Below are positions 6,691 to 51,793 of a DNA stretch of 64,000 nt, piece after piece. The translations under genes and the position numbers were made by a program. Numbering within the stretch: the first letter of the stretch is position 1; each line of letters opens with the position of its first letter. Under the pieces are notes generated by a model that was not told where the DNA came from, searched no databases, and worked only from the letters and a program-made list of their open reading frames with translations. The DNA comes from Rhodothermales bacterium (GTDB lineage: Bacteria; Bacteroidota; Rhodothermia; Rhodothermales; Bin80), in contig OZ253559.1 in the NCBI GenBank assembly GCA_965262785.1, positions 4,164,265 to 4,228,264 of the forward strand. The letters are read 5' to 3'.

Positions 6691-6746
6691 ACCCCGATGC
6701 CTGCCGCTAACCGCTACTGCTCACTACTACGTTTTCCTTCAGCAGC

Positions 6747-9820: not shown

Positions 9821-9850
9821 CTTATTCCTGGCTGATGCGTAGATAGCCTT

Positions 9851-28541: not shown

Positions 28542-29011
28542 GTCTGACTTTACTCCTGGCGCCGGACCGGCGTTGGATGCAGGCCGCACTGCGCGAGGCC
28601 GAGCATGCGCTTGAAAAGGGCGAAGTGCCCGTGGGTGCAGTCGTTACCCACCAGGGCCAGATTGTCGGTCGGGGCCACAACCTTGTCGAGTCTCTCTCCG
28701 ATCCCACCGCACATGCTGAGATGATTGCCATCACGGCAGCGTGCGAAACCCTCCAGTCCAAATCCCTCAAGGGCTGCTACCTGTATGTAACACTGGAGCC
28801 CTGCCCCATGTGCGCGGGCGGAATCGTCTTGTCCCGATTGGACCGACTTGTGTTTGGCGCATTCGACGAAAAGGCCGGCAGCGCTTCTACGCTGTACAAC
28901 ATCGTTCAGGACGCACGTCTTAACCATCGGGTTGAAGTGATCTCCGGCCTTGAAGCCGAGACCTCTGCCGGGATGCTTCAGGCGTTTTTTCGGTCAAGGC
29001 GGCGCACCTAG
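28535..29011 (+). CDS. tadA: tRNA adenosine(34) deaminase
   Basis: WMQAALREAE...VPVGAVV...HAEMIAI...TLEPCPMCAG is the CDA zinc-binding motif pair. The start codon is GTG. Confidence 0.9.
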   Translation: MVSLTLLLAPDRRWMQAALREAEHALEKGEVPVGAVVTHQGQIVGRGHNLVESLSDPTAHAEMIAITAACETLQSKSLKGCYLYVTLEPCPMCAGGIVLSRLDRLVFGAFDEKAGSASTLYNIVQDARLNHRVEVISGLEAETSAGMLQAFFRSRRRT

Positions 29012-30306
29012 TGCGCAAACGCCGCACTCGCAGGCACTCCAGTGGCTTCCGACTGCCAAATCTGGACGATCAAAGGCGTCAGCAGCCAGACGGCTTTCTG
29101 CCACCAGCCAGCTGCAGGCAGTCCTAGGTCAAACCACACCTACCAATTGACCCGCGGCCAACCATACGACATACGCCAGTGCCAGCATGTGTTCACGCCC
29201 GCAAAGCACCGCAGATTCCACATGCCTTAACTGTGGTGCCGTCAACTGCTGGCCAAAGTACTCGCCCATCACGACAGCCTGGTCCGTGCGCCCGCCCGGA
29301 ATCAGCTTTGACATGGAGCTGGTCGCCGCAAGGGCGACAGGTGTCCACGAAGAATATTGCCGTGGCCGGCATTGGGCCACGCAGTCGCCAGGTCCTTGAC
29401 CGTCGGGTGCCCCGACCCGTAGACCCATTCGCTAGAGTAGCGGTGTTCGGCGCGATACCACACTGCTTCTGTGAGAAAAGGCATAGTTTCGTCCCATCTT
29501 CGAGTGGATCTCGCCAGAATTGAGTAGCGTGTGCGAGTCCTCTCAGCGCCGATGAAACTGCAGGCAAATATACTGAGGTAAAATTCGATGAGTTTTCCTG
29601 GCTTGATCGGCTGCACGACCAAGGCCACCACCTACTGGGGGTATACTTGGCTCACGAATTGGACCGTGCGCCAGTATTCAACACAGTCGTAACACGTACC
29701 GTACAGCCTGTGGTTTGTGCATGACAGGTGCCTTACTGCGCTAACCTTATTTGTCGAAAAGCTGATTGGCCTATACGTCCTGCCGTGAAACGAGCCGCAG
29801 AAGTAATTGACAAACAAGCACCGCGAATGGCCACGTGCGATCGTGATCGCACCTTCGGCACCGATGCTGCTACGGTGGGCGCACCAGCGCTCATCACCCA
29901 ATGCAGCGCCCGCCAGTCAAGCGCGGGGATCTATGCAGGTCGGATGTTTGAATTCGGTGCAACAGATATTAAGTAGTGCCTCGAATTGGCGCTTGGTGGC
30001 CTCGACGACGACCGGGTGGCAGTGCACGTATGCGTCATGGCAATGATGAACGCAAAGCCCGAATTACGACGGCCACTAGGAAACACCACTTGATCTCGAC
30101 ACCTGCTGCCTGCCACATTGCTGGGGGATTCTCCTTTATGAATGAGAAAGAATCGGCTTTTCAGTATCGCATGATCGGCTCCCGGACGCCGGTACTTCTG
30201 TAGGCGCAGCCTATGCACAACACGCCAACAATAGGAAAGAATCGTGTATCCGAAACCCCCCTATTCAGGCAAGTGTTTCAGTGAGTAGAATGATCTACAT
30301 GCATTC

Positions 30307-31311
30307 ATGGTAGACATTGTCATTATTGGGGCAGGTCCGGTGGGCCTGACGTGCGGCATTGAGGCGGTACGCAGCGGCCTGGAAGCGGTGATTGTGGAAA
30401 AAGGCGCCCTAGCGAACTCAATTGTGGGGTACCCGCTCCAAATGGAGTTTTTCTCCACACCGGAGCTACTGGAGATCGGAGGACATCCGTTTCCAACCCT
30501 TCGCTACAAACCAACACGGGGCGAAACCCTAGAGTACTATCGCCGTGTAGCGCTTCAGGAAAGCCTTAACATACGCCTCTATGAGCAAGTGCTGGGGGTT
30601 GCCGGCACGGACGGCGCCTTTCGAGTCACGACCACTAAGGGTACGATCGCGTGCCGAAAAGTAGTGGCCGCTACGGGATTCTTTGACGTTCCCAACTTAT
30701 TGAATGTCCCTGGAGAGGGCCTTTCCAAGGTTACGCACTATTACCGTGAACCTTATCCGTACACGCGGCAGAAGGTCGTCGTTGTAGGTGGCAAGAACTC
30801 CGCTGCTAAGGCTGCCCTGGAGTGCTATCGGCACGGTGCAAAGGTTACGTTGGTGCACCGCGGAGCGCTGCTATCCGACCGCATCAAGTATTGGATCAGG
30901 CCTGATTTGGAAAACCGCATCCGAGAGGGCAGCATCAAGGTGCTCCTCAACACCTCCGTCACGGCTATTGAGCCGCACCGCTTGTTTCTCAGTGGCCCAG
31001 ACGGGCCGCTCACGATAGAAAATGACTTCGTTTTGGCCATGACAGGGTATCGACCCGACTACGACTTTCTGGGCACTTTGGGCATTGCTACCAGGGATGA
31101 TCAATACAACACGCCGGACTATGACGAGGAGTCATTTGAGACCAACCGCCCCGGCCTTTACCTCGCCGGCACCGTCTGCGGCGGGCTTAAGACGAGCCGC
31201 TGGTTCATAGAAAACGGCCGCTTTCATGCCTCGCAGATTGTGAAACACATCACCACCGGTGAGGTAACGCCACTTCGATTAGCGGAGCGCTACTGGAAAA
31301 CCTTGGAGTAG
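30307..31311 (+). CDS. ypdA: YpdA-family FAD-dependent disulfide reductase (putative bacillithiol disulfide reductase)
   Basis: Contains VDIVIIGAGPVGLTCGIEAVRSGL (FAD Rossmann), a second Rossmann VVVVGGKNSAAKAAL and a C-terminal ...YLAGTVCGG.... The family was recognised from memory. Confidence 0.75.
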   Translation: MVDIVIIGAGPVGLTCGIEAVRSGLEAVIVEKGALANSIVGYPLQMEFFSTPELLEIGGHPFPTLRYKPTRGETLEYYRRVALQESLNIRLYEQVLGVAGTDGAFRVTTTKGTIACRKVVAATGFFDVPNLLNVPGEGLSKVTHYYREPYPYTRQKVVVVGGKNSAAKAALECYRHGAKVTLVHRGALLSDRIKYWIRPDLENRIREGSIKVLLNTSVTAIEPHRLFLSGPDGPLTIENDFVLAMTGYRPDYDFLGTLGIATRDDQYNTPDYDEESFETNRPGLYLAGTVCGGLKTSRWFIENGRFHASQIVKHITTGEVTPLRLAERYWKTLE

Positions 31312-31314
31312 CCA

Positions 31315-33441
31315 CTATTGCGCAACGACAACTTTCCGCGTCTCGCTGGCTTGAGGGCTTTCCGCTCGCAGCATGAATACGCCGGCAGGAAGACCATCTA
31401 CCGGCATGACAAGACGTGTCTCACCGGCGCCCAGGGAATGTCGCTGCTCCCGCACGCGGCGCCCCAAGACGTCGTAGAGCACCAAGCGCAACGCAATGGG
31501 CTCGGGAACACTCAGCGCCACGTGCAGGCGCGTCGTTACCGGGTTGGGCCAGGTGGCCGTGAGCCGCACGCCACCTATGAAGCGAGGCTTCTGTTCTGCC
31601 ACCATAGGAGAGGCAATAGAGAGTCCATATGCCACACCATTACGGTTGTCCTGCAATCCGGTGAAGGGCTCCCACTCGCTGTAGGGAGTCTCCCCAAAGT
31701 CTACGTCCCTGTCATCCGCCGTGCCTAGTATACTATCCGGTCCCATCCCCAGGAGAGCTTTAGGATTCTGCCCCGCATACATGAGGTCGACTTCAAAGCC
31801 TGGATCGCCCGTATGGAAACTGGCAAGGATGTGCCCAGCTTCATGCGCCGCCACGTTACCGATCGCTGTGCCTATGACATCCGCAACAGTCAATGACGCC
31901 GCATAGGGTACCGATGACGGCGAGGTCTGGTCGTTTGGATTCGCCAGTACGTCCAGAAGTACCACAGCCGTCTCTTCCAATGCAAAGTTGCCTACATCTA
32001 TCGATGCTGCTACGCCAAGGGTGGACAAGCCGATCTCTTGCTGCGTGCCGCCCACAATGACTCTGCTAACCTGCGGATTGCCCCATTCGTCAGCGTGGTC
32101 GCGGCTGTTGCGCACCTCTAGGTGGAAATCAGGGTTGCGCGCCGTTTGCAGGTCCGTCACCAGGTTTTCGTGGACGGTCGCCATCACCACGTCAATAATG
32201 GCGTCCTCCTCCCCTTGGAGCTGGTTTGCCTCCAACAGCACGCGTAGTGATGACAACTGCGCATCCGCAGCCCCACCCAAGTGGGAAGCGTCGAGCTCCG
32301 CGCCATCAAAGTCCACAAACAGAATCTGCGGTTGAAGGGCAGTGGCCAAGGGTGACCGGAAAACCCCAAGCTGCATAGCATATGCCCCGCCGCCTCGCGA
32401 GACGGCGACACTGTAACGGCCCGGCGCCGTAGCTACCGCCGCTAGATTCGCATTGCCTCCTTCGTAGAGCAACGTCTGTGGCGGATAAAGCGTGCTCCAG
32501 TTCACGTTTGTCCCCATGCGCAAGGTACCGTCTCCATCGAACAGCAGGAGATGGCGGGCCTCGCCCTGGACCCCGGCGCTGAAGACATCGCCAGCCTCCA
32601 AGTCAAAGCTGAAGAAGTCGATGTCCTGGGCATCAAGTCCGAGTGTTAGCGTGTACGGCCCTTCGCTGCCAGCTTTGGGGCCTGACGCAGAGTCAAATGG
32701 ATCGGCTGGCCAGGCCGAATTTACGCCGCGTACGAGGATCCAATACTCTCCCGCTTCCAACGGGCGCGCCTCCAAGTAGCTGTCCGGTTCACCGGCTATA
32801 CCAAAGTCGTTGGAAAAGAGCCGAACCCCATTGGCATCATAGAGCCCCACCTTCGTGTTAAGGCGTGGCATGCTACTGGCAAGGGTTTTTATCTCGGCCG
32901 TCACCAGCTGGCCGGCCTGCACCTGTCCGATATAGTAGAAGTCGTAGTCTGCTGTGGCATTGCCCGCTGATCCATGCGGACCGTCACCAATGAATGCTTG
33001 TAGTCTTATGCGCTCGCCAAGGCCCAGCGGTGTGTAGCGTGCCAGCGGAATTGCTCCGTCATCTTCATCCTCGGGTTCAGTGAGGGCACCCAGGTTTCTG
33101 GTTACCGAGTCCGCAAGTACGCCGCGCACCAGTGCCCTTGGAGTAAGTGTGCGGCTGAAAGAGGAAAGAAACTCCGCGCTTCCTTGAGTATCGTTCCAAT
33201 TGCGCTCATTGGGCGGCTCCTGCTCTTCTACTTCCGGCAAACTGCGTACCACTAGCGCGTTTGCTGCGGCCCTTGCGCGGCTTCGATGAGCCAATTCCTG
33301 GTGCCAAAAGGCCCAATCTACCTCCGTGCCCTTTGGCAACAAGCTAAGGGCGGGGTTGGAGGCCCTTTGGGACTGTGCGCTTAGGGGAATCGTGTAGCAA
33401 GCCCCTAAAAGGGCAATCAGCACTACTGCACGAGATCCCAT
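31315..33441 (-). CDS. secreted metzincin-like zinc metalloprotease candidate with a T9SS C-terminal sorting domain
   Basis: 708 aa with a signal peptide. Two beta-sandwich-like segments contain D(Y/I)DF(Y/F) (DYDFYYIGQVQAGQLV and DIDFFSFDLEAGDVF). The zinc motif is HEAGHILASFH (HExxHxxAxxH) followed by DLMYA. The last roughly 80 aa (WPNPVTTRLHVALSV...LVLYDVLGRRV...GVFMLRAES...) match the Por/T9SS CTD pattern. Confidence 0.7.
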   Translation of the reverse strand: MGSRAVVLIALLGACYTIPLSAQSQRASNPALSLLPKGTEVDWAFWHQELAHRSRARAAANALVVRSLPEVEEQEPPNERNWNDTQGSAEFLSSFSRTLTPRALVRGVLADSVTRNLGALTEPEDEDDGAIPLARYTPLGLGERIRLQAFIGDGPHGSAGNATADYDFYYIGQVQAGQLVTAEIKTLASSMPRLNTKVGLYDANGVRLFSNDFGIAGEPDSYLEARPLEAGEYWILVRGVNSAWPADPFDSASGPKAGSEGPYTLTLGLDAQDIDFFSFDLEAGDVFSAGVQGEARHLLLFDGDGTLRMGTNVNWSTLYPPQTLLYEGGNANLAAVATAPGRYSVAVSRGGGAYAMQLGVFRSPLATALQPQILFVDFDGAELDASHLGGAADAQLSSLRVLLEANQLQGEEDAIIDVVMATVHENLVTDLQTARNPDFHLEVRNSRDHADEWGNPQVSRVIVGGTQQEIGLSTLGVAASIDVGNFALEETAVVLLDVLANPNDQTSPSSVPYAASLTVADVIGTAIGNVAAHEAGHILASFHTGDPGFEVDLMYAGQNPKALLGMGPDSILGTADDRDVDFGETPYSEWEPFTGLQDNRNGVAYGLSIASPMVAEQKPRFIGGVRLTATWPNPVTTRLHVALSVPEPIALRLVLYDVLGRRVREQRHSLGAGETRLVMPVDGLPAGVFMLRAESPQASETRKVVVAQ

Positions 33442-35306
33442 AGCTGGTGGTACTGAATGTTGGTCCTGTCGAGTTCCAGCAGGCGCTGTACGAGCGCACG
33501 TGCCTCCGCTATGCGATCAGTGTTAAAGTACAAGGAGGCAAGGTTGGCAAGGGCAGGCTCCAAGTCAGGATTCAGGGCGATCGCCGCCAACAGGTCTGCC
33601 TCCGCCTTTACAAAGTCCCGAAGGAGCACATGCGTGTACCCCCGGTCACTGTAGGCATCAGCATACTTCGGGTTCGCTGCCAAGACTTCATTTAGAACTG
33701 CTGCTGCCTGCACGAAACGCCCATTGTGCACGTAACCCGACGCCAACTGTCGTTTGAAGTGCAGGTTAGCTGGCGCAAGCGTCACAGCCTGCTCCAAATA
33801 GGGTAGCGCTGCACCGGGGTTGCCAGTCTCAAGGTACGAATCCCCAATCCTATAGGCTGTCCAAGCGTCGTCAATGGCGTCGAGGCTTCGGGCGATCCGG
33901 GTAATCGCCGCGTAGTCGTTGTCCAGATAGTGCATCCGTATCAGGGGCGCAGCTACGGCCGCAAGCGACGATCGGGCCTGCGCCACGCGCAGGTACACTG
34001 CGGCAGAATCCAGAAAACCCGGGTGATTCGTGACCTCTTCGTAGTAAGTCAAGTATCCCTGTGCGATTTCTTTTGCCGTTGGCGAAGGGTCGATGAGGCT
34101 GGCCATGCGCACAAAACGCGCGCCCTCGGCATCGCTGGTCAGCACCGTCGAATTCGTTGTGTCCGGAGTACGAATGAAATGGTCGGTGATCCGAACATGT
34201 GGGATGTCCTTCGACCCGGACACAGGCATGTGGCACGTGACGCAATCCTCGGTGGTGGGCTCGGCGTGTAGCTGCACCGCACCAGCTGGTTCATGGCAGC
34301 TTTTACACGCAGCGTCGTAGTGGTCCTGCCCGAGGGCCTCTATTGGAAGATGCGGGTCGTGGCACGTGATGCACGTGAGGGGTTGTTCCGGCGTGGATTG
34401 GCGGAAGCACTCGCTCTGGGTCAGCCGATCAGGATGTGACGCCATGACGAACTGGCGCAAGCTGTCCGCAAAACGGGGCCAGAAGACGTTTTCTATGGAA
34501 GCCAGTACCATGCCAGGCCGAAAGTCTGCAAACGTTTTGCCTTCCTTGGGCACAGCAGCCCCTTGAACATGGCAGCCCTGGCAGATGTTAAACTGCAACT
34601 CCACCGGCAACTTGGCTGGGTTGACGATGGTGTAGTCGATCTCCTTGGATACGTCTACGGCACCTCCGGTGCGCATCGCCTCAATGTGGACAGAACCGGG
34701 CCCGTGGCACCGCTCGCAGTCGATGCCGTGCGGCACAGCGTCATACTTGTTATAAGAGCCTTCAACGATCGCAGGCATGCCGTTATGGCATGTGATGCAT
34801 TTCACCACTATGGGCCGATCAAATCGAACATTGCCGCCCCCCTTGAATCCGGGTGGCAAGTCCCAGATGCTGTCCTGGACATACCAGGTCAGAGGCATCT
34901 GGTAGAGGTAACCCCCTACATTCATGATGTGGGAATTTGTATGGTGCCCTGACCCTACTATGTAGTCGATCTTTTCCGTGCGCCGGTGCACGGTGTCCGT
35001 GCCGGCCAGACGGTATTCCATGATGTACAGCGAATCGCCGCGCGCCAGGGCCTGGTAATGCAGGTTATTGAAGTCGTCATAGACAGGCTCGGGGCTGTCA
35101 AAGTCTGCCGCACTGTTGGCCAACGTCGCAGCTTCCCACGAGCGCCCCATCTGCGCCTGATTGTAGGTCTCCGCCTTGTCTGGGTGGCATGTAGCACACG
35201 CCTCGATACCAACGTACTCCGCATCCAAGTTACGGTATTGGGTTGTACGGTCTGCCGTGTTGCAGCCCGCTACAAGGAGCACAAGGACGTAGTACGGTAG
35301 CCTCAT
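33423..35306 (-). CDS. multihaem (7 x CxxCH) cytochrome c fused to C-terminal TPR repeats, lipoprotein
   Basis: The CxxCH motifs are CATCH, CITCH, CERCH, CQGCH, CITCH, CKSCH and CVTCH. The C-terminal roughly 230 aa are TPR-like (...AYRIGDSYLETGNPGAALPYLEQAV...). The start is set at MRLPYYVLVLLVAGC (lipobox; plus-strand CAT at 35304-35306). Confidence 0.8.
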   Translation of the reverse strand: MRLPYYVLVLLVAGCNTADRTTQYRNLDAEYVGIEACATCHPDKAETYNQAQMGRSWEAATLANSAADFDSPEPVYDDFNNLHYQALARGDSLYIMEYRLAGTDTVHRRTEKIDYIVGSGHHTNSHIMNVGGYLYQMPLTWYVQDSIWDLPPGFKGGGNVRFDRPIVVKCITCHNGMPAIVEGSYNKYDAVPHGIDCERCHGPGSVHIEAMRTGGAVDVSKEIDYTIVNPAKLPVELQFNICQGCHVQGAAVPKEGKTFADFRPGMVLASIENVFWPRFADSLRQFVMASHPDRLTQSECFRQSTPEQPLTCITCHDPHLPIEALGQDHYDAACKSCHEPAGAVQLHAEPTTEDCVTCHMPVSGSKDIPHVRITDHFIRTPDTTNSTVLTSDAEGARFVRMASLIDPSPTAKEIAQGYLTYYEEVTNHPGFLDSAAVYLRVAQARSSLAAVAAPLIRMHYLDNDYAAITRIARSLDAIDDAWTAYRIGDSYLETGNPGAALPYLEQAVTLAPANLHFKRQLASGYVHNGRFVQAAAVLNEVLAANPKYADAYSDRGYTHVLLRDFVKAEADLLAAIALNPDLEPALANLASLYFNTDRIAEARALVQRLLELDRTNIQYHQLWDLVQ

Positions 35307-35426
35307 CAAGCGTTGGTCGGGTAGTGCGGCTACTTCTGTAGCACACCCACACATACAAAATAGTTCGAACTGCCCGCCAACGCAACCACTGTCGGGCAAG
35401 ACCCGCTGTGATGCAGCCCTTCTGCA

Positions 35427-37535
35427 CTAGAGCGCATCCAGAATCTGCTTCACGGCGTTGTTGCCAGGATCAAGCGCCAGCGCCTGGACAGCTAGGCGCC
35501 GGGCCTCTTCGTAGTTGCCCGAGCGCGCGTGAGCTAAAGCCAAGTTAATCATGCCACCTAAGTAGTCGGGTGCAAGCGCCAACGCCGCTGTGAGACGTTC
35601 AATTGCCGCCCTCAAGTTACCGTTGTTGAGATACCAGGTGCCAAGGTTGGCCTGGGCTACGGCATTGCCAGGTGCTGCAGTGGCCGCACGCTCAAAGAGC
35701 CGCCTGGCGTCTGCGTTCCGGCCAGGCATCGTGGTATACATCAGCCCGAGGTTGCCCAATGCGTCCGAGTCGTCTGGCTCCAGTGCAATCGCACGTTTCA
35801 GTGAGGCTTCTGCCTGGTCAAAGGCGCCGTCCTGCATGTATGCGGTACCCAGGTGCGTGTGCGCAACTGCAAGCAACGGCATTTCCGTGGTAGCCAGCCG
35901 GAACTGCACCGCAGCCTGCTGCAGGTCACCCTGCCGCTGCAGGAAGAGGCCATAGTTGATGCGGATATCCGCAAGTGCTGGCTGCTGCACCAGTGCGCTA
36001 TCATAGAGCGCACGGACTTCACCAGACGCTTGCTCCGCCTGCTCCAGTGCCTGAGCTAGCCCGTTCAGGCGCTCCGGAACCGCTCGCCGCTCGATTGCCA
36101 GGCGAAGCGGTGCAATAGCTTCTTGTGCGCTACCCAAGTTTGTTAGCGTCACACCAAGCAAAAAGCTCAGTTCCCCTGACGAGTCCTGGGCATGAATTGG
36201 CCCAGCGAGTGTGATGCCTCGATCCAAAAGCACACTGTCTGCCAGCTGCGTGCCATGAACAAGGTAGGCGAGCGCCGCATAGCGCTCAGCTTCTGGCCCC
36301 GAAGTGTCGCGCTCGAAATACGGCGCTAAACCGGCTGCTTCCAATGCATGTGCCGGCCGCAATTCCGGAATGTCGTTGCCTACGACTCGGATCCAGTGGT
36401 CAGTAAAGGAGGCATGAGGCGCACCATCTGCGGGCACCTTGGGCATATGACACTGGATGCAGCTTTCACCTCCGCTGTGCTCGGTCATATCCACCCCATC
36501 GTGGCAACTAGCGCACGTCCTATCAAAGTACTCGGGTCCCTTATCGCGGAATCCCTCATGGGGATTGTGGCACGTTGTGCATGTCATGGACGTGGCAACA
36601 AAGCACGCACTCAGCCTAAGTCGCTCCGCGTGCGAGATCACGTCAATCGTCCCCTCTGTTTCATCTTTTGGCGCCGAAAACAGTGCCACGAAGTCCTCCA
36701 GGCGCTCCGAGGGTCGAAAGTCAAAAGCCTCGTGCCCCTCGCGCAGCAGCGATACGGTAGTGTGCAGATGGCACTGCTGGCAGATGTCCATCTGCAGCTC
36801 GCCGGATAGATGTGCAGGATTTACGATGGTTCGATCAGCCGCGTCTCGGACCTCCGGACTTGCAAGGCGTTCGGCCACGTGAAGGCTGCCCGGCCCGTGG
36901 CAGCGCTCGCACCCAATACCCTCCGGCACGTGGTCATACTTCCCGGTCACAAAGGGCACCGAACCGGGATAACTGTTGTGACACGCCATGCACCGGTCCG
37001 GTACCAGGCGACCGAATCGCTTATTGTAGATCTGATACCCGGGGCTGAAATCCCAGGTGGCGCTCTGGGCGTACCACGTTAGCGGCATCTCGTATAGACG
37101 ACCGACCGATTCCGTCAAGTATGTACGCGCGGCGTTGCCACTCCCTACTACATAGTCTATCTTTCGCACCAGTTCATGCGTCCTGCCGCCGCTGGCATCC
37201 AGACGGTACTCTGCCTGGAAAAAGCTGTCGCCGCGCGCGAAAACCTGGTAATAGAACCCGCTGCCTTCGTGAAACAGGGGCGCCGCCCGGAAGTCCTCTA
37301 TTACATTTTCCTGCGTAAGCGGATAAAATGACCGGGCCATGCCATGTTCTTGAAAGCCCCGCCACTGACCTTCATGGCAGTCGAAGCAAGCCAGATCTCC
37401 AACATATTCCGCTCCCAAGTTGGCAAACCTGATCGGCTCTGCATCCTGTCGTCCGCTTGGCGAAATGCAGCCGCTCGAAAGCCAGGCCCAAAGCGGCAAA
37501 ATCAGTATCCAAGCACCCCGCTGCATCGACGACAT
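35427..37535 (-). CDS. multihaem (7 x CxxCH) cytochrome c fused to C-terminal TPR repeats, lipoprotein (paralogue of 33423-35306)
   Basis: The CxxCH motifs are CFDCH, CMACH, CERCH, CQQCH, CTTCH, CASCH and CIQCH. It shares the blocks IDYVVGSG, MPLTWY, CERCHGPGSLH, TIVNPAHL and FTDHWIR with its neighbour. The TPR tail is longer. The start is set at MSSMQRGAWILILPLWAWLSSGC (the alternative ATG is 9 nt downstream). Confidence 0.8.
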   Translation of the reverse strand: MSSMQRGAWILILPLWAWLSSGCISPSGRQDAEPIRFANLGAEYVGDLACFDCHEGQWRGFQEHGMARSFYPLTQENVIEDFRAAPLFHEGSGFYYQVFARGDSFFQAEYRLDASGGRTHELVRKIDYVVGSGNAARTYLTESVGRLYEMPLTWYAQSATWDFSPGYQIYNKRFGRLVPDRCMACHNSYPGSVPFVTGKYDHVPEGIGCERCHGPGSLHVAERLASPEVRDAADRTIVNPAHLSGELQMDICQQCHLHTTVSLLREGHEAFDFRPSERLEDFVALFSAPKDETEGTIDVISHAERLRLSACFVATSMTCTTCHNPHEGFRDKGPEYFDRTCASCHDGVDMTEHSGGESCIQCHMPKVPADGAPHASFTDHWIRVVGNDIPELRPAHALEAAGLAPYFERDTSGPEAERYAALAYLVHGTQLADSVLLDRGITLAGPIHAQDSSGELSFLLGVTLTNLGSAQEAIAPLRLAIERRAVPERLNGLAQALEQAEQASGEVRALYDSALVQQPALADIRINYGLFLQRQGDLQQAAVQFRLATTEMPLLAVAHTHLGTAYMQDGAFDQAEASLKRAIALEPDDSDALGNLGLMYTTMPGRNADARRLFERAATAAPGNAVAQANLGTWYLNNGNLRAAIERLTAALALAPDYLGGMINLALAHARSGNYEEARRLAVQALALDPGNNAVKQILDAL

Positions 37536-37622
37536 CGGGACCTGGCCATCGCCCAAAACAACCTGCTTCTGTAATTCCCGCATATCCCATACCTTCCAGC
37601 GCGCACCCTAAACTTACGAGCC

Positions 37623-39323
37623 ATGCGCTATTTCATTGCAGTATTCCTGTCGGTTTGTGTCTGCGCACACGGTGTGCAGGCCCAGAGCGGACGCATTCCT
37701 GTGGCAGCGGAGCATGGAATGGTCGTTTCAAGCCACCACCTGGCCTCAGCGGCCGGCATGCGCGTGTTGGAACAAGGGGGCAGTGCTGTTGACGCAGCAG
37801 TAGCTACGGCATTTGCCCTCGCGGTCACACTCCCGTCTGCCGGCAACATCGGGGGAGGTGGCTTTCTGGTCTACCATGGTGCGGATGGTCATGTGACTGC
37901 GTTCAACTTCCGCGAAAAAGCTCCACTCGCTGCCACACCTACGATGTTTCTGGGGAAAGACGGCAAAGTGCACGACAACAGCAACCATGAGGGTATACTC
38001 TCTATTGGCGTTCCCGGTACGGTCGCCGGCTTGGCGCTGGCCCACGAACGACTCGGTCGGATGCCTTGGTCCGAATTGGTGGAACCGGCCATTGCTTTGG
38101 CGGCCAAAGGATTCCCGTCCACCCGAGATATGCAGGGGTTCTTGCGGCATCTTAGCCAGGAGGGCGATCCGCTGTACAGCGCCACGCGCGCAGCATTCCT
38201 AAGGAACAGCGCGGAGGTCTATGAACCTGGCGAAATATGGAAGCAGCCCGATTTAGCTTCCTCGCTGGAGCGAATTCGGGACAGGGGCCACGATGGATTC
38301 TACACCGGCGAGACGGCGCACCTGCTGGCCAAGTTTTCTGCCGAGCACGGCGGCCTTATTACGATGGAGGATTTGGCCCTTTACCAGGCTGAAGAGCAGG
38401 CTCCCGTACACGGGACGTACCGGGGCTTTGATGTCTACTCCATGTCGCCGCCCAGCAGCGGTGGCGTTGCGTTGGTCGAAATGCTGAACATCCTTGAAGG
38501 GTACGACCTGAAGGGCATGGGGCATAACTCGGCTCAGTACCTTCATGTGCTGACGGAAGCGATGCGGCGCGCCTTTGCTGACCGTGCAGAACACTTGGGC
38601 GACCCTAATTTTTACTCCGATATGCCCATCGAGCAGCTAACGTCAAAATCATACGCTGCGCGACTTCGCGGAGGCATAGACCTCACGCGCGCCTCGGTAA
38701 GCGACTCTTCCCGCTTCGCGGGATTGTACTCGAGCTACGAAAGCGAGGAAACCACGCACCTCTCCGTGATGGACGGAGAGGGCAACGCAGTCTCCCTTAC
38801 GTACACGCTAGAATACGGGTACGGCTCCCGCATTGTGGCTGCGGGCACAGGGTTTCTGCTCAACAACGAGATGGGAGACTTCAACCCCATGCCTGGGCAT
38901 ACCGACTCGCGCGGCATGATAGGTACGCCACCGAATGTGGTGGCTCCGGAGAAGCGTATGCTGTCCAGCATGACGCCTTCAATTGTCGCGCTTGATGGTA
39001 AGCCTGTACTTGTTGTGGGCACCCCTGGTGGGCGCACGATCATCAATACGGTCTTGCAAGTTATCCTTAATGTCATCGACCACGGCATGAACGTTGGAGA
39101 AGCTGTCGAGGCACCCCGTATCCATCACCAATGGCTGCCTGATGTGACGAGCTTCGAATCGCTAGGGATCTCGCCGGACACCAAGCGGCTGTACGAAGCA
39201 CTGGGGCATCATGTGCGCTTACGCGGCACACAGGGGCGCGCTCACTGCATCGCGTCTGAAAGAGACCTCCTCTTTGGCGCTGCGGATTCCCGGAGCTACA
39301 ACGGCCGCGCGATAGGCTTTTGA
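37623..39323 (+). CDS. ggt: gamma-glutamyltransferase
   Basis: 566 aa with a signal peptide. Contains GGSAVDAAVA, GGGGF and the autoprocessing site ETTHLSV, then ...GSRI...GFLLNNEMGDF and ...GTPGG..I. Confidence 0.95.
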   Translation: MRYFIAVFLSVCVCAHGVQAQSGRIPVAAEHGMVVSSHHLASAAGMRVLEQGGSAVDAAVATAFALAVTLPSAGNIGGGGFLVYHGADGHVTAFNFREKAPLAATPTMFLGKDGKVHDNSNHEGILSIGVPGTVAGLALAHERLGRMPWSELVEPAIALAAKGFPSTRDMQGFLRHLSQEGDPLYSATRAAFLRNSAEVYEPGEIWKQPDLASSLERIRDRGHDGFYTGETAHLLAKFSAEHGGLITMEDLALYQAEEQAPVHGTYRGFDVYSMSPPSSGGVALVEMLNILEGYDLKGMGHNSAQYLHVLTEAMRRAFADRAEHLGDPNFYSDMPIEQLTSKSYAARLRGGIDLTRASVSDSSRFAGLYSSYESEETTHLSVMDGEGNAVSLTYTLEYGYGSRIVAAGTGFLLNNEMGDFNPMPGHTDSRGMIGTPPNVVAPEKRMLSSMTPSIVALDGKPVLVVGTPGGRTIINTVLQVILNVIDHGMNVGEAVEAPRIHHQWLPDVTSFESLGISPDTKRLYEALGHHVRLRGTQGRAHCIASERDLLFGAADSRSYNGRAIGF

Positions 39324-39371
39324 GCAAGCTGCCTGCTCCCTGCATTTTTCCACTCGTGACCCTACGCTACC

Positions 39372-40724
39372 ATGCCTGACCCTACTGCAGCATCCCAGCC
39401 TTCATTGAAGAAGGTTCTGACCTGGATCGATGCGATGGGGATCTTGGTGGGAATCACCATCGGGTCGGGCATCTTTGCTACGCCGCAGCGCATCGCTGCA
39501 TTGGTTGAGTCTTTTCCAGTAATGTTCTGGCTGTGGGCTGGGGTGGCTGTGTTTGCCGTAGTCGGTGGTCTTCTCTACTCGGAGTTGGGCACGCGTATGC
39601 CGGTCACGGGCGGCGAATATGTCTACATCACCAAGGCCTTTGGCCCGTTTGCGGGCTTCATGTTCGGTTGGGCGCAGCTATTCATCATTCGAACGAGTCC
39701 AGCTGCCGGCCTTTCCATCATAGCCGTTGACTATGTGGAGCATTTTGTCGTGTTATCGGGGGCGCAACAGACCTTGTTGGCCCTCGGCATTATTGCGGTC
39801 ATTGGCTTTATCAACTACATAGGGACCAAGCCCGCCAGCATCTTTCAGAATGTCACTTCTGCACTAAAGGTCAGTGGCCTGCTGTTCATCATAGTACTGG
39901 GCGTACTGCTCGTCGGTGCTGCGGATGATAAGCTCATGACTTCGGCGCCCGTCCTTGTCGAGACCGGCACGATTGCCAACCTTGTCGCCGCACTCTACCT
40001 GGTGATGTTTACAACCATCGGCTGGGAGCGCGTTGGCTACGTAGCCGGCGAGATGAAGAACCCGCGCCGGGCGCTCCCGCGTGGAATCCTGTTCGGACTC
40101 CTGATCGTGGCGGTGGTTTACCTCATGGCCAACATGGTTTACTTCCGCACTCTGGGCATTGAGGGGTTGCGCGCAACTGAACGGGTGGCGACGGAAACCA
40201 TGACCGTTGCCATCGGGTCCGTTGGGGCGGCCATCATCGCCGTCATTGTCGTCATCTCCTGTGTAGGGAGCATCAATGGCACGATGCTGGCCTCCGCCCG
40301 TGTATACTACACCATGGCAAAAGATCGTCTCTTCTTCGGATGGCTCCAATACGTCCATCCAAAGTACCGGACGCCTTCGCTGGCCATCTTGGCACACTGC
40401 GCGTGGGGCGCGGTGATATTGCTGGTGCGGGGCACGTTTGAGGACATCATAGCCGGAATGGTTTTTGCCATTTTGATCTTCTATGGTGTCACTGCGGTAG
40501 CTTTCTTTTTGTTGCGGCACCGTCAAGTTGGGGAAAAGAACGCTTTCAAGATGCCTGGCTATCCTGTGCTACCGGCGCTTTATCTCCTTGCCACCATCGC
40601 GCTGGTAGCCCTGCGCGCCTGGTTTGAGCCGCACAAATCATTGATCGATCTGGCCTTCGTGGCTACGGGACTCCCGTTTGCCGTTTTCTGGGTCTTAAGA
40701 AGAAGGACGGACAACAAAACTTAG
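39372..40724 (+). CDS. APC-family amino acid permease
   Basis: 450 aa with about 12 hydrophobic helices. Contains IGSGIFATP and ...GGEYVYI.... Confidence 0.85.
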   Translation: MPDPTAASQPSLKKVLTWIDAMGILVGITIGSGIFATPQRIAALVESFPVMFWLWAGVAVFAVVGGLLYSELGTRMPVTGGEYVYITKAFGPFAGFMFGWAQLFIIRTSPAAGLSIIAVDYVEHFVVLSGAQQTLLALGIIAVIGFINYIGTKPASIFQNVTSALKVSGLLFIIVLGVLLVGAADDKLMTSAPVLVETGTIANLVAALYLVMFTTIGWERVGYVAGEMKNPRRALPRGILFGLLIVAVVYLMANMVYFRTLGIEGLRATERVATETMTVAIGSVGAAIIAVIVVISCVGSINGTMLASARVYYTMAKDRLFFGWLQYVHPKYRTPSLAILAHCAWGAVILLVRGTFEDIIAGMVFAILIFYGVTAVAFFLLRHRQVGEKNAFKMPGYPVLPALYLLATIALVALRAWFEPHKSLIDLAFVATGLPFAVFWVLRRRTDNKT

Positions 40725-43272: not shown

Positions 43273-45783
43273 CTGTGTTGACACCCTACGGCGGCCACAG
43301 TCCGTACTTCTTCTGGAGCACGGCAAACATGACAGCACACGCCTCCAGCCGGAGGTAGCCGCGCGACATGATTTTGGCGCCAGGCGGCGGATCGCTTTTC
43401 CGATTCATGTATCCTCCCATCATGGCCAGCAGCAGAATGGCTGCAGCCAGATCATCGGGAGACGCCAAGTTGAATCCTTCGGCGTATTCTCGTAGCACGC
43501 ACAGCTCAATATCTGTAAACAGGATCTCGGCCGGTGCTTCCGGGTCCTGGCGACCCAGTAACGTCATCAAGTGCAGGCGCCACGCCATCACCATGTTGAT
43601 GGTGATGGCCAGGTGAAGACTATCGGCCTTCTGCAAGCGCAACTCCTGCACCTTGCACACACTCTTGAGAATCCGGAAGCCGTCTTCCACACGCCAGCGT
43701 AACATGTAATAGTCGACCATTGTTACGGCCTGTGCCACCGAGGTCACCTCCGCCGTCGCGAGCAGGTACCACTGAATCGCTTTCTGTCCTTCTGGCGGGT
43801 CCGCCTCTCCAACATGTATGGCGGTGACCTTCACCGGGCCGCCCTGCTGTCCACGGGTGGGCGGAAGCATGACCGTACGGTAGCGTACCTCCATCTGTGC
43901 GATGCGGCCCGCACGGCCCTTATGCTTGACACGGCCCGACTTCTCGCGACGGCTCAGCCGCTGTATTGCTACCTCAATGGTACCTTTGGGCGCCCCCTGG
44001 CGCATGAACTCAAACAACAACGGACCCTTTCTTCCCAGTCTCCGATTCGCCTTGGCCCGTACTAATAGATCCACCCGTCCCACTTGTTGCTGCGCGGCGA
44101 ACAGGGCAAAGATGTCCGCTTCCCGATCCATGACGCAGAGTACGCGGGTCTTGCTGCTGAGGTGTGTGGCCGCCTCGGCGATGTCATGCAGTCCGTCGAT
44201 CCATTGCTGCGTCTTAGCTGCGTGCTTTCCCGCTTGGGTCCTGTAGGCACAGCGCAGCACGCCCAGCGGCAACCCCTGCGCACTCAACGCCAACGTCGTA
44301 TGCAAATGCACCCCCCGTGCTTTCGCGGTGGTCTGGTTGCGCCCGATCACTTCCAAGCCCTCGCACGCAGGACGGGTGCTGTAGTTGATGTCCGTGCCGT
44401 CCTGAAGGCACAGCACCGTCTTTTCCGTGCGCATCCGCTCGATCGTACGACGGCGATGCGGCGCCAGGATATCCGCGGGCGTGGTTCCCCGCTCGTTGGC
44501 CTTCTCTATGAAGCGATAATATCCCCGTATCGCGGCACGATCGGATTTCATGGTGGCCGTTATGGACTCGCCGGGCGCTCGTGCCAATATAGTGACACTG
44601 TTGACCAGGCGGGTAGTCCGCCGCTTATCCCCCAGCTGTGCGCCCCCAAACTCCTGCGCCGCCCAGGTCTCGGCATCCAGCCCCGCGCCAGCCTCCAGTT
44701 TGGGATACGCATCTACGTGCGCCACCCCGAGATGCTTGCGCCACCGGCGGTCCAGATCATAGACGAACACCGCCTTCTTCGTCCGGGTACACGCCTTGGT
44801 CTCGGCATGGCGACCCCGGCCGGTGGTCCTTCCCACATATTGGAATCCCGCCGCACGGAAACAGGTCCCCCGCTGCTCAGGCCCCACGAAGGTCTCAATG
44901 ACCCACGGGGTATAGCCGTAGCGCGCCGCAAAATCCACGGGCAACCGCTTGAGCACCTTCCCCAGAAGATGACTGGCCAGGTTCTTGACCTTTACGCCTG
45001 GCCGAATTAACAGCCGGTTCAGGCCCACTACGCGCATCAGATGCTGCTGGCGCTGCGCGTGCGTCCAAGCCATCCACCGGTCGCGCGGTCCCACATACAG
45101 GCCGGAAGCCGCAAACCCGATCGCGCCCAGATACCCGTGATCGCTCCGAAACAAATACTTTATCTGCGCGCCCGCAAACTGCCTCACCCCCTGCGGATGC
45201 TCCGCTGCCATCAGGGTGTTCCAGCGCGCACGCTGCGTCGCATCCTCCACCAACTCCAAGGCCAAGCCCTTGATCTGTTTGAGCGAAGCGGGCACCTCCA
45301 CTGGTTTCGGCACCGGCTGGTCCAACAGCCGGGGCGTACCGCTTGCAATGGTGCGCCTGGGCGCGGGCAACGACAGCCTGTCCTCGGATTCCAGCGTCTT
45401 GAGCGCCTTCAGACACCCGGTCTGCTGCAGATTCCCACGAGCATCACGAAAGCCGAATGCATGGCACACCTGGCGGCTGATGGCCGTACGGCTTTCACCG
45501 GCATGCGCTTCCAATGTGCGCAAAAGCCGCGCCTCAGAGGTCCGCAGCGTGCGAAGAATCTGGCTCTGCGTAAGCATGCCGCAAAGCTACACGGCATGAT
45601 TTACAAAGTCAAGTCGCTAATTTGGGGACAGGGTAGTGTTAGGTGCCTAGCCCTGCTACAGCCGCCAGCCGGCACGGTTGCTCTCCGACTGAGTGCAGGC
45701 CAGCGTCAACCATTGTGCCACCTGCTGTACTGCCCAATTCCTGCGCCCGTTTGAATCCGGGTGTACAGTGGCTAACAACGCAG
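43273..45783 (-). mobile_element. insertion sequence (IS4 family, IS50-like); boundaries tentative
   Basis: Presence is supported by the intact transposase. The proposed ends are CTGTGTTGACACCC... at 43273 and the reverse complement CTGCGTTGTTAGCC... ending at 45783. They match at 7 of the first 8 nt and 11 of 18 nt, and they begin with CTG as in IS50. The tnp stop lies 13 nt inside the left end, as in IS50. No 9-bp target duplication is visible, so the ends are unproven. Confidence 0.3.
43286..45577 (-). CDS. IS4-family (Tn5/IS50-like) transposase with an N-terminal DUF4338-like extension
   Basis: Residues from about 300 to 763 align by eye with Tn5 Tnp. The matches are LGDKRRTTRLVN (Tn5 LGDPRRTARLVN), QDGTDINY (EDTTSLSY, D1), CVMDREADIF (VCDREADIH, D2), YYMLRWRVEDGFRILK (YTHRWRIEEFHKAWK, E plus YREK) and MGGYMNRKSDPPPG (LGGFMDSKRTG). 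Residues 1 to about 295 carry GAQIKY..., ...LGAIGFAASG...RDRWMAW... and ...NLASHLLGKVLKRLPVDF...YGYTPWVIETFVGPEQ.RGTCFRAAGFQYVGRTTGRGR, which I recognise as the DUF4338 pattern. Confidence 0.9.
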   Translation of the reverse strand: MLTQSQILRTLRTSEARLLRTLEAHAGESRTAISRQVCHAFGFRDARGNLQQTGCLKALKTLESEDRLSLPAPRRTIASGTPRLLDQPVPKPVEVPASLKQIKGLALELVEDATQRARWNTLMAAEHPQGVRQFAGAQIKYLFRSDHGYLGAIGFAASGLYVGPRDRWMAWTHAQRQQHLMRVVGLNRLLIRPGVKVKNLASHLLGKVLKRLPVDFAARYGYTPWVIETFVGPEQRGTCFRAAGFQYVGRTTGRGRHAETKACTRTKKAVFVYDLDRRWRKHLGVAHVDAYPKLEAGAGLDAETWAAQEFGGAQLGDKRRTTRLVNSVTILARAPGESITATMKSDRAAIRGYYRFIEKANERGTTPADILAPHRRRTIERMRTEKTVLCLQDGTDINYSTRPACEGLEVIGRNQTTAKARGVHLHTTLALSAQGLPLGVLRCAYRTQAGKHAAKTQQWIDGLHDIAEAATHLSSKTRVLCVMDREADIFALFAAQQQVGRVDLLVRAKANRRLGRKGPLLFEFMRQGAPKGTIEVAIQRLSRREKSGRVKHKGRAGRIAQMEVRYRTVMLPPTRGQQGGPVKVTAIHVGEADPPEGQKAIQWYLLATAEVTSVAQAVTMVDYYMLRWRVEDGFRILKSVCKVQELRLQKADSLHLAITINMVMAWRLHLMTLLGRQDPEAPAEILFTDIELCVLREYAEGFNLASPDDLAAAILLLAMMGGYMNRKSDPPPGAKIMSRGYLRLEACAVMFAVLQKKYGLWPP

Positions 45784-48800: not shown

Positions 48801-48870
48801 CTGGGAGCATCGGCACCAGCAACGCGCCGAGCGCGATGCCAAGGGCAACCCGTGGCATGGGTGGTGACAC
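45823..48870 (-). CDS. secreted BNR/Asp-box (sortilin/VPS10-type) repeat protein, glycosyl-hydrolase-like
   Basis: 1015 aa with a signal peptide. About ten S/T-x-D-x-G-x-(S/T)-W Asp-boxes are present (STTGGASW, SMDAGQSW, TKDGGVSW, STDGGDTW, SDDGGNSW, TRDGGATW, TMDFGETW and others). Confidence 0.8.
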   Translation of the reverse strand: MSPPMPRVALGIALGALLVPMLPEAQAQTATYDTTLYSALEYRAIGPYRGGRSAAVTGVPGHPMLAYFGATGGGVWRSTTGGASWQNISDGYFGGSIGAVAVSTWDPNIIYVGGGEKTVRGNVSHGYGMFKSMDAGQSWESIGLEDSHRIPRIRIHPKNSSLVYAAVMGHLSGPNEERGIYRTKDGGVSWEKVLYINDEVGFVDLAMDPSNPRVLYASAWRVIRTPYSLESGGPGSGIWKSTDGGDTWNEVTGQDNGLPKGALGISGVSISPANPRRVYAIIEAADGGVFRSDDGGNSWRRINKDRSLRQRAWYYTRIYADTQDEDVVYVLNVRFWRSKDGGQTYESISTPHGDHHDLWIDPDDSNHLIIADDGGAQVTFDGGRNWSTYYNQPTAQFYRVTTDNHFPYRILGAQQDNSTVRILHTSGGTNEREWEPTAGGESGWLAPKPDNPDIVYGGSYGGYLTRVNHDTGERRAVNVYPDNPMGHGAEGMKYRFQWNFPILFSQHDHEVLYTAGNHLFRSVTEGQSWEIISPDLTRADSAKLSSSGGPITKDNTGVEYYATIFTVAESQHDAHVLWTGSDDGLVHMTRDGGATWTDVTPDGMPEWMMINDMSVHPFEEGGLYMAGTRYKLDDFQPYLYKTMDFGETWTEITGGIDRQHFTRAIQPDPVRPGLLYAGTESGMYISFDDGARWTSFQRNLPVVPITDLAWKDNDLVVATQGRSFWVMDDVSLLHQLSEEVASSDMWLFRTSPLVRGAGSSVALRYYFKDVPDSTGTVLRILEEDGTTIKTYDSESLDLVAGTHTFRWNTRYEDAESFEGLIMWSGSVQGPRAAPGNYRARLVANGDSVEVPFEIKMDPRASSTQQDLLAQFEFLIGIRDKLSETHEAIKRIRNVRSQIQGVSKRKDATDEVKAAADSLVKRITTIEEALYQTKNQSRQDPLNFPIRLNNKLAAVGSNASIGNYKPTHQAIEVRDILTRRIDEQLAMLKAILELEVPALNEMIRASGIPAILMQED

Positions 48871-51789: not shown

Positions 51790-51793
51790 TTCG

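Follow-up and report, generated by a model that had tools for sequence, protein, structure and literature searches.

Paired seven-haem cytochromes fused to tetratricopeptide repeats in a Rhodothermales bacterium: predicted lipoproteins of the NrfA/c554 superfamily

Two adjacent genes on the minus strand of a 64,000-nucleotide (nt) stretch of contig OZ253559.1 from a Rhodothermales bacterium (the whole stretch is called the window) encode predicted lipoproteins in which a domain with seven CxxCH haem-binding motifs is joined to a C-terminal tetratricopeptide repeat (TPR) domain. The genes and their products are referred to here as A and B. By the predicted fold of B and by sequence profile, the haem domain is a seven-haem member of the c554/MccA/OcwA clade of the NrfA/c554 superfamily, and it is not orthologous to any characterised member of that superfamily. 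Judged from sequence searches, the architecture is not rare but belongs among the larger uncharacterised cytochrome families, of which the window holds one instance.

The minus-strand open reading frames (ORFs) extend over 35427–37583 for A (718 aa) and 33423–35399 for B (658 aa from a TTG codon). The ATG codons at 37535 (A) and 35306 (B) are the plausible starts, because B orthologues begin at the equivalent Met and because in both genes a hydrophobic stretch and a lipobox Cys follow directly. A first-pass annotation, made from the letters of the window, had described two co-directional genes with a lipoprotein signal, a seven-haem domain and a TPR domain in each, and this architecture holds in both. 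The count of exactly seven CxxCH per protein is likewise correct, with CATCH, CITCH, CERCH, CQGCH, CITCH, CKSCH and CVTCH in one gene and CFDCH, CMACH, CERCH, CQQCH, CTTCH, CASCH and CIQCH in the other. The motifs are located at residues 66, 198, 225, 268, 335, 357 and 375 of the A ORF and at residues 37, 170, 197, 242, 312, 334 and 355 of B (mature numbering), and their spacing is near-identical in the two proteins (132/133, 27, 43/45, 67/70, 22 and 18/21 residues). The expectation by chance, obtained by residue shuffling, is about 0.02 CxxCH per protein with a maximum of 2. A motif scan of both proteins found no CxxCK, no CX3-4CH and no independent CX11-17CH site, the sole regular-expression match of the last kind in each protein ending in a canonical CxxCH. 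A and B are collinear over 630 residues, with 32% identity (E value 9e-87), and every block from which paralogy had been read at first pass (IDY(I/V)VGSG, MPLTWY, CERCHGPGS, TIVNPA and TDH(F/W)IR) lies within this alignment.

The cytochrome part of A and B is recognised weakly by Pfam and NCBIfam. Cytochrome_C7, C554 and Paired_CXXCH score just over their cut-offs, while Pfam Cytochrom_C552 matches the CHMP...H region under its cut-off. The DmsE model TIGR03508 reaches 35–47 bits (cut-off 192), the GSU2203 decahaem model NF041028 reaches 47–61 bits (cut-off 325), and the NCBIfam NrfA models reach 17–18 bits (cut-offs 595–692). An AlphaFold2 model of B, built from a 63-sequence alignment, has a predicted local distance difference test (pLDDT) value of 88 and a predicted template modelling score (pTM) of 0.87, and the latter, obtained for the whole protein, suggests a fixed arrangement of the haem and TPR domains. 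Because Foldseek with the full-length model returned TPR structures only, the haem domain was modelled alone (residues 21–408; pLDDT 85). With this model, Foldseek identified OcwA (PDB: 6I5B; E value 1.9e-8, template modelling score 0.53), OmhA (PDB: 6QVM; E value 2.6e-6) and MccA (PDB: 4RKN; E value 5e-3), and no other significant structure. A profile of 37 family haem domains, searched against PDB sequences, matched OcwA (E value 8.7e-15), MtrA (3.3e-12), OmhA (5e-7), Shewanella NrfA (6e-7), MccA (9e-4) and c554 (1.4e-3).

The arrangement of the haems is in keeping with these matches. Haem 1 lies in an N-terminal helix of B, within the sequence YVG-x-EAC-x-x-CH, which is near-identical in OcwA. 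In the models, the strands of a β-sheet domain occupy B residues 57–149, after haem 1 at residue 37 and before haem 2 at residue 170. This domain is followed by three haems, including CERCHGPGS-x-H, and then by three more ending in CHMP. A β-sheet domain after haem 1 is common to OcwA and MccA only (PMC6703420), and the c554/MccA/OcwA clade of the superfamily was defined previously (bioRxiv 10.1101/2022.02.24.481543). The earlier view that the haem domain falls outside the known respiratory multihaem families was thus wrong, since both fold and sequence profile make it a member of the superfamily. It is nevertheless not an ortholog of the characterised proteins, because its haem count differs from those of OcwA, OmhA, MccA, NrfA and MtrA, because it has neither CxxCK nor an independent CX15CH, because the OcwA His-His pockets cannot be recognised in it, and because the TPR solenoid replaces the three-helix oligomerisation bundle.

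The 21 Cys and His residues that make up the seven CxxCH motifs do not vary among the 63 aligned relatives. Further conserved candidates for axial ligands (B numbering) are M53, H207, H291, H319 and H376, which are invariant in the same alignment, and H370, which is present in 60 of the 63 sequences; M53 aligns with a His residue of OcwA. One open haem is conceivable in the family, because there are six family-wide extra ligands for seven haems and because haem 2 is five-coordinate in c554, MccA and OcwA (PMC6703420; bioRxiv 10.1101/2022.02.24.481543). The A-type and B-type proteins differ in their remaining His residues. The B-type keeps H122, H126, H193 and H329, which in the A-type correspond to Ala, Tyr, a variable residue and Tyr, and the A-type has conserved His residues of its own at H80, H105 and H369 (ORF numbering). 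Such subtype-specific residues could complete six-coordination in each type. The contrast within the β-sheet domain, GSGHHTNSH in B versus GSGNAARTY in A, could tune an open haem site. A ligand-by-ligand assignment by way of the OcwA alignment was dropped, since two HMMER alignments disagree around H291. Besides the haem-binding residues, there is an invariant non-haem Cys 12 residues before haem 5 (B C300, window positions approximately 34407–34409; A C327 in ORF numbering). A partner Cys between haems 6 and 7 occurs in 59 of the 63 relatives and is missing in both window proteins, where B has Leu and A has a gap; the loop around this site is the least confident part of the B model.

A and B are predicted to be bacterial lipoproteins from their signal peptides and lipoboxes (WLSSG/C in A and LLVAG/C in B), in which the Cys residue is conserved. 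It is present in 61 of the 63 aligned B-centred relatives (Cys15 of B), and for A it is kept in all ten A-type orthologues as well as in 28 of 28 sequences of the A-type alignment designated A5. The C-terminal 220–300 residues of both proteins form a TPR region according to Pfam. TPR_2 scores 74 bits in A and 60 bits in B (cut-off 27), and TPR_1, TPR_2, TPR_8, TPR_16, TPR_19 and others exceed the gathering scores in both. The model of B has helix pairs throughout residues 411–626, which Foldseek and phmmer match to the TPR structures of consensus TPR (CTPR) proteins and OGT. Matches to the NCBIfam TPR models PilW, Tgl and GltE are generic and far under the family cut-offs. A CcmH/CycH-like role in cytochrome maturation, raised by weak TPR_CcmH_CycH matches, was rejected because these are below cut-off and generic. 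The positions of the individual features are collected in Table 1.

Table 1. Positions in the window of genes A and B, their domains and the two flanking genes. TPR, tetratricopeptide repeat; T9SS, type IX secretion system.
Feature	Position	Strand	Basis and remarks
Gene A, A-type seven-haem cytochrome-TPR lipoprotein (predicted)	35427..37535	-	702 aa from ATG at 37535; ORF open to 37583
A signal peptide and lipobox (MSSMQRGAWILILPLWAWLSSG, then C)	37467..37535	-	Read from sequence
A haem domain: haem 1, β-sheet insert, haems 2–7, FTDHWIR at end	36366..37466	-	Alignment with B and family
A linker and TPR domain, about 300 aa	35430..36365	-	Pfam TPR_2, TPR_16, TPR_1 and others; ORF residues about 464–715
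Gene B, B-type seven-haem cytochrome-TPR lipoprotein (predicted)	33423..35306	-	627 aa; ORF, homologues and AlphaFold2 model
B signal peptide and lipobox (MRLPYYVLVLLVAG, then C)	35262..35306	-	Read from sequence
B haem domain: haem 1, β-sheet domain (strands 57–149), haems 2–4, haems 5–7	34083..35261	-	Models, Foldseek, profile
B TPR domain, helices at residues 411–626	33426..34082	-	Pfam, model helices, Foldseek and phmmer
Secreted metzincin-like protein, PPC-like region, T9SS C-terminal sorting domain	31315..33441	-	Start overlaps end of B
ggt, gamma-glutamyltransferase	37623..39323	+	Pfam G_glu_transpept E value 8.6e-164; TIGR00066 533 bits (cut-off 358)

An exact-sequence look-up of B returned no record, and homologues were used instead. 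When the haem domain of B alone (409 aa) was searched with phmmer against 1.84 billion cluster representatives, 5,374 matches were obtained at an E value of 1e-3 or lower, and 1,438 clusters (50% identity) at 1e-30 or lower. Nearly all full-length matches have 600–750 aa and consist of the haem domain and TPR. With each species represented by one genome, a scan found a relative in at least 568 genomes, and the best 80 of these are all from Bacteroidota (Rhodothermales, Saprospiraceae, Chitinophagales, Sphingobacteriaceae and Flavobacteriales); distant representatives bear names from Ignavibacteria and Bacteroidota. Fetched loci carrying family genes are labelled L001 to L088 in the following. 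Exactly seven CxxCH motifs are present in 92 of 95 family genes from 83 loci. The sources name these proteins only 'tetratricopeptide repeat protein', 'multiheme c-type cytochrome', 'PilF' or 'hypothetical', and full-text literature searches found nothing on the seven-haem cytochrome-TPR architecture. With generic source names and nothing on the fusion in the literature searched, we agree with the first-pass annotation in finding no established function. Two further observations concern the family at large. A third, very divergent paralogue, with 23–25% identity and eight CxxCH plus TPR, is found in L015 (6301–8412) and L016 (5955–8198), where it is flanked by choice-of-anchor B surface proteins on one side and an alginate-export-type porin on the other and stands upstream of the B-type gene. 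The contig of L037 (CALRQL020000025.1), which has a B-type gene with 43% identity to the query, is labelled 'Agrobacterium sp.', the other listed matches being all from Bacteroidota, and this is probably a mis-binned or mislabelled metagenome-assembled genome.

Family genes of the fetched loci were scored against both A and B. Ten of them are A-type (46–64% identity to A, about 30% to B), and the B-type genes have 45–71% identity to B. Orthologues of A with 46–72% identity are present in the Rhodothermales, including the cultured Rhodocaloribacter litoris, and the A-type proved, in a search with the A haem domain, to be itself a large subfamily of the Rhodothermales, comprising over 120 clusters with an identity of at least 50%. 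The B-type is the ancestral, widespread form, and the A-type is a Rhodothermales addition. The order is A-B in the window, L001, L003, L004, L005, L009, L011 and L087, B-A in L006 and L013, and divergent in L018; in L001 the two genes overlap by 4 nt. From the sequences compared, A and B are old paralogues and not the products of a recent local duplication, because each type has orthologues in other Rhodothermales, sometimes reordered or megabases apart. Of the tandem duplication suggested at first pass, the paralogy therefore stands, at 32% identity, but a recent event does not, given the identities among the orthologues of each type (45–71%) and a genome in which A and B lie 3.3 Mb from each other.

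In the window, the stop codon of A and the start codon of B are separated by 120 nt (35306/35427). The gene that follows encodes a cargo protein of the type IX secretion system (T9SS), and its ATG (33441) is reached 19 nt short of the end of B and 16 nt ahead of the B stop codon (33423–33441); both junctions had been placed correctly at first pass. On the plus strand and divergent from A, ggt begins 87 nt upstream of that gene. A promoter and terminator scan of 30200–37800 gave counts not above those of shuffled sequence, which speaks neither for nor against an operon. The T9SS gene, whose start overlaps the end of B, is probably co-transcribed with the pair and is at most a candidate for a functional tie to it. 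The sorting domain of its product is recognised by Por_Secre_tail (PF18962; 29.8 bits, cut-off 27) and TIGR04183 (31.7 bits, cut-off 23). The protein includes an HExxHxxxxxH motif in which H533, E534, H537 and H543 are invariant among 24 homologues and M554, downstream of it, is near-invariant. Relative to the metzincin motif HExxHxxGxxH, which a Met-turn follows, it has Ala at the Gly position (HEAGHILASFH), and no peptidase model of Pfam or NCBIfam matched. The T9SS metzincin-like protein was rejected as an obligate partner, since members of its family are widespread without these cytochromes: they are common in Actinobacteria, Planctomycetes and Entotheonella, where their export tags are of another kind (RTX repeats).

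The order of ggt, divergent from A-B-T9SS, is shared by the window, L001, L003, L004 (where an additional ORF separates B from the T9SS gene), L005 and L011, and probably by L087. In all, ggt is directly upstream and divergent in seven related loci and L087, and the overlap of the B stop with the T9SS start recurs in L001 and L087. The order of a surrounding housekeeping block (Pyr_redox_3, deaminase, Kelch protein, truA, shikimate kinase and RNase HII) is kept even at sites that have only A, and much of the conservation of the pair with the T9SS gene is therefore inherited gene order. The pair plus the T9SS gene, which the first-pass annotation had proposed to check for conservation across Bacteroidota, is kept together only in the nearest clade, inside a broadly syntenic housekeeping block.

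Several other features of the window were recorded. The 1.3 kb at 29011–30307, between the deaminase and Pyr_redox_3 genes, contain short overlapping ORFs only, with no Rfam or tRNA match, no inverted repeats and no plasmid match; in L003 only about 220 nt separate the same two genes, and the segment looks like an insertion or a decayed gene. Around the pair are a periplasmic gamma-glutamyltransferase, an amino-acid permease and an M19 membrane dipeptidase (37623–40724 and 18192–19394, plus strand) as well as the metzincin-like protein (31315–33441, minus strand); together they could be a set for scavenging peptides or glutathione that has nothing to do with the cytochromes. A 763-aa ORF (43286–45577, minus strand) with a DruA-like N-terminus (PF14236; E value 1.6e-21) and a Tn5/IS4-type transposase (Tnp_DNA_bind, DDE_Tnp_1 and Dimer_Tnp_Tn5) looks like a mobile-element gene in an otherwise housekeeping region. 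A 1,015-aa Sortilin/BNR-repeat protein is encoded at 45823–48870 (minus strand), adjacent to the genes for a hydantoinase/oxoprolinase A and B subunit pair (49786–53362, plus strand).

The neighbourhoods of family genes in relatives are of several kinds. The context of the Bacteroidia B-type genes is of a housekeeping and envelope nature (mltG, dapF and htrA-like). Another picture recurs in other Rhodothermales. In L084 (R. litoris CP076718.1, 1–10163), L085 and L086, a TonB-dependent receptor, a secreted protein of about 1,130 aa, a PorV/PorQ-family barrel and A form a cluster of four genes on one strand with short gaps. The protein of about 1,130 aa has a PorZ-like or T9SS-type tail (below cut-off) and no other recognisable domain, and it had no PDB or Pfam match. 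A PorV/PorQ-family gene is also directly upstream in L006, L013 and L088; the genes of this family at seven loci score 111–186 bits on NF033709 (cut-off 90). A B-type version of the cluster is found in L002, with two FG-GAP/UnbV proteins and a separate TPR protein; in this locus (5243–9881) the tandem FG-GAP/UnbV_ASPIC pair and the TPR-only protein, of 397 aa, stand directly upstream of a single B-type gene. The order in L015–L017 is a choice-of-anchor B surface protein, the eight-haem paralogue (L015 and L016 only), an alginate-export-type porin, B and a monohaem cytochrome c, and a monohaem cytochrome c adjoins the family member in L008 too. In a metagenome set of 72 loci with distant family members (about 30% identity), a TonB-receptor-like barrel (CarboxypepD_reg plus OMP_b-brl_4) occurs within two genes in 18 loci, and an FG-GAP/UnbV protein within three genes in five. 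A looser link of the family to T9SS-related or outer-membrane genes recurs, which we regard as a lead and not as a result.

We tentatively propose, putting the chance at slightly short of even, that A and B are periplasm-facing lipoproteins that act together as seven-haem wires, each docked through its TPR domain to a partner, between the respiratory chain and the outer-membrane side. Both would be lipid-anchored in the cell envelope and most likely face the periplasm, and each would carry a chain of seven covalent c-type haems through which electrons move. The TPR solenoid, in the place of the ancestral oligomerisation helices, would dock the cytochrome to a protein partner, and A and B would probably cooperate, possibly as a hetero-oligomer. 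As to electron donor, acceptor and direction, we infer a relay that would link the respiratory chain (by quinol oxidation or through a soluble cytochrome c) to a partner at the outer-membrane face of the periplasm. The proposal is supported by the haem motifs and their invariance, the conserved candidate axial ligands, the lipobox, the confident models, the homology in fold and profile, the β-sheet layout in common with OcwA and MccA, the TPR domain and the conservation of both paralogues. The neighbours of family genes in related loci (monohaem cytochrome c, alginate-export-type porin, PorV/PorQ-family and TonB-receptor-like barrels) also speak for it.

Several observations weigh against it. 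No donor, acceptor or maturation gene and no outer-membrane barrel adjoins the pair in the window. As the first-pass annotation had noted for the flanks, there is no cytochrome-maturation, quinol dehydrogenase or terminal reductase gene, here within the whole 64 kb (maturation genes were not searched for beyond the window), and the 64 kb hold no other CxxCH-rich ORF. Most B-type genes of Bacteroidia stand between a GNAT gene (19 loci) and mltG/yceG (26 loci), a setting that is uninformative on redox partners. A is found without an adjacent B in L084 (R. litoris), L085 and L086, and the 3.3 Mb between A and B are on one chromosome (L010 and L086), so that adjacency is not obligatory. The pair adjoins in 11 loci overall, but most of these were retrieved through their similarity to B, which biases the count; an apparent rule that the A-type always stands beside the B-type (10 of 10 loci) was an ascertainment artefact, refuted by L084–L086. 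TonB-receptor-like genes make up 4.4% of genes at distance 1–2 versus 1.1% at distance 5 or more over all loci (Fisher p = 0.001), but these neighbour counts are approximate, coming from crude ORF calls that failed in at least one high-GC locus (L084). Genes for TonB receptors and for T9SS cargo are also very numerous in these phyla. The literature searches, finally, found no experiment on any family member.

The proteins might be enzymes and not relays, which we consider unlikely but deserving of some weight. An open or weakly bound haem 2, fed by the remaining six, would then reduce or oxidise a small molecule (nitrite, hydroxylamine, NO, sulfite or peroxide, for example), and the TPR domain would only position the enzyme. 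The nearest solved relatives are all five-coordinate at haem 2 and are all active as nitrite or NO reductases in vitro (PMC6703420; bioRxiv 10.1101/2022.02.24.481543). The tally of six universal extra ligands for seven haems likewise leaves one haem without a family-wide distal ligand, though the subtype-specific His residues listed above, four in B and three in A, could supply it. The divergent β-domain sequences of A and B would fit two different active-site pockets, but the His-His motifs of OcwA are inconsistently aligned and neither CxxCK nor CX15CH is present. The invariant Cys near haem 5, with its frequent partner, recalls the two-Cys Cu site of MccA; against this, the second Cys is missing in both window proteins and no nitrogen- or sulfur-cycle gene is nearby in the window. 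It is somewhat harder to believe that A and B are the periplasmic redox arm of an outer-membrane complex made of a β-barrel (PorV/PorQ-like, porin or TonB-dependent receptor) and a T9SS-exported surface protein, and serve either to process an imported substrate (for example Fe(III) complexes) reductively or to exchange electrons across the outer membrane. Such a complex would account for the receptor clusters of L084–L086, their B-type counterpart in L002, the PorV/PorQ genes upstream in L006, L013 and L088, the surface protein and porin next to B and a monohaem cytochrome in L015–L017, and the barrels and FG-GAP/UnbV proteins of the metagenome loci. The T9SS cargo gene overlapping the end of B and the profile similarity to MtrA, which sits inside a porin, point the same way. 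Yet homologues of the R. litoris cluster proteins were sought in the window and none was found, there being no PorV/PorQ-like gene, no homologue of the protein of about 1,130 aa and no adjacent receptor. A receptor within two genes was found at 0 of 78 B-type loci of Bacteroidota genomes, and the surface proteins checked are without CxxCH. The abundance of TonB receptors and T9SS cargo in these phyla, and the occurrence of the T9SS metzincin-like family elsewhere without these cytochromes, also argue for caution.

It is improbable that A and B are redox sensors or scaffolds, in which the haem domain would report the periplasmic redox state and the TPR domain would signal to a partner (a secreted protease, for instance, or a factor of envelope assembly), with no sustained electron flow. 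TPR lipoproteins are commonly assembly or regulatory scaffolds, as the PilW, Tgl and GltE matches recall, although these are far below cut-off; the absence of donor and acceptor genes from the window and the housekeeping and envelope-related context in Bacteroidia would also agree with a sensor. However, seven haems exceed the need of known haem sensors, A and B have no signalling output domain and no adjacent regulator, and a wire agrees better with seven motifs that are all strictly conserved. A further possibility bears only on the clause that A and B work together, and overlaps with the functional readings: the two may be independent, redundant or condition-specific, and their adjacency, also to ggt and the T9SS gene, may be an inherited order without functional meaning. 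We see little chance of this. It would explain why the housekeeping block keeps its order in genomes with only A at the site and why, in at least one genome, there is no linkage of A and B, but the adjacency persists through three arrangements (A-B, B-A and divergent), A and B overlap in L001, and the B stop overlaps the T9SS start in the window, L001 and L087.

To our knowledge, cytochromes of the NrfA/c554/OcwA superfamily have been studied almost only in anaerobes and in specialists of the nitrogen and sulfur cycles. Within that superfamily, the present family makes up a very large branch without a name. Its hosts are mostly aerobic Bacteroidota (among them Rhodothermales, Chitinophagales, Saprospiraceae, Sphingobacteriaceae and Flavobacteriales) and also Ignavibacteria, and the database label 'tetratricopeptide repeat protein' hides the cytochrome. 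It is of a known kind, a multihaem c-type cytochrome of this superfamily joined to a TPR domain, but we have not found a description of the variant with seven haems, TPR in place of the helical bundle, a lipid anchor, aerobic Bacteroidota as hosts and two conserved subtypes. Its role would fill a gap in the map of envelope electron transfer in a phylum abundant in soil, water and sediment, and cultivable hosts exist, among them R. litoris with the A-type cluster (CP076718.1, about 1.775–1.793 Mb) and a Chitinophagaceae isolate with a B-type gene (CP197396.1). Nothing here points yet to an unexpected mechanism. There is a small chance that the family is the redox arm of an undescribed outer-membrane complex in aerobic Bacteroidota and soil bacteria. 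We hold it doubtful to the same degree that this complex would consist of a TonB-dependent receptor or porin, a PorV/PorQ-like barrel that retains a surface protein exported by the T9SS, and the TPR-docked seven-haem lipoprotein. If so, the respiratory chain would be coupled to the uptake or transformation of extracellular substrates, for example in reductive iron acquisition, or to electron exchange across the outer membrane, and the link to the outer membrane and T9SS would represent a new way to wire redox chemistry to outer-membrane transport.

A and B can be set beside several known systems. With envelope TPR lipoproteins of the PilF/PilW, Tgl, GltE, NlpI and BamD type they have in common an N-terminal lipid anchor and a partner-docking TPR solenoid, but these have no cytochrome domain and no membership is implied. 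The pentahaem nitrite reductase NrfA resembles the family over the last haems, where the profile match to the Shewanella enzyme lies; in contrast, its catalytic CxxCK haem is absent from A and B, and no nrfH or nrfBCD genes are present. The decahaem cytochromes MtrA and DmsE (PDB: 6R2Q, chain A) share the profile match over haems 2–7 as well as the motifs CE-x-CHGP-x-x-H and CxxCHNPH, a likeness of repeated haem-pair modules. However, MtrA has ten haems and no β-sheet insert, it is not among the Foldseek matches, and no MtrB-type porin is near A and B. The octahaem sulfite reductase MccA of Wolinella succinogenes (PDB: 4RKM and 4RKN) and cytochrome c554 (PDB: 1FT5) belong to the same clade, with weak fold or profile matches. 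MccA also has the β-sheet insert (PMC6703420), but it has eight haems with a CX15CH site and a two-Cys Cu site, whereas A and B have no CX15CH haem and no paired Cys, and no sulfite-respiration genes are found at A and B. The best match in both fold and profile is OcwA, the nine-haem cell-surface cytochrome of Thermincola potens, and the second match in fold is OmhA, the eleven-haem S-layer cytochrome of Carboxydothermus ferrireducens. Both share with the family the haem 1 sequence YVG-x-x-AC-x-x-CH, the β-sheet domain that comes next, the haem 3 sequence CE-x-CHGPG-x-x-H and a late CHMP haem. They differ in having nine and eleven haems instead of seven, with only about 18% sequence identity, and the His-His motifs that line the open haems of OcwA are not consistently aligned in the family. 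Their C-terminus is a three-helix bundle where A and B have a TPR domain of about 220–300 aa, and they are surface proteins of Gram-positive iron reducers, whereas A and B are predicted lipoproteins of aerobic, Gram-negative Bacteroidota.

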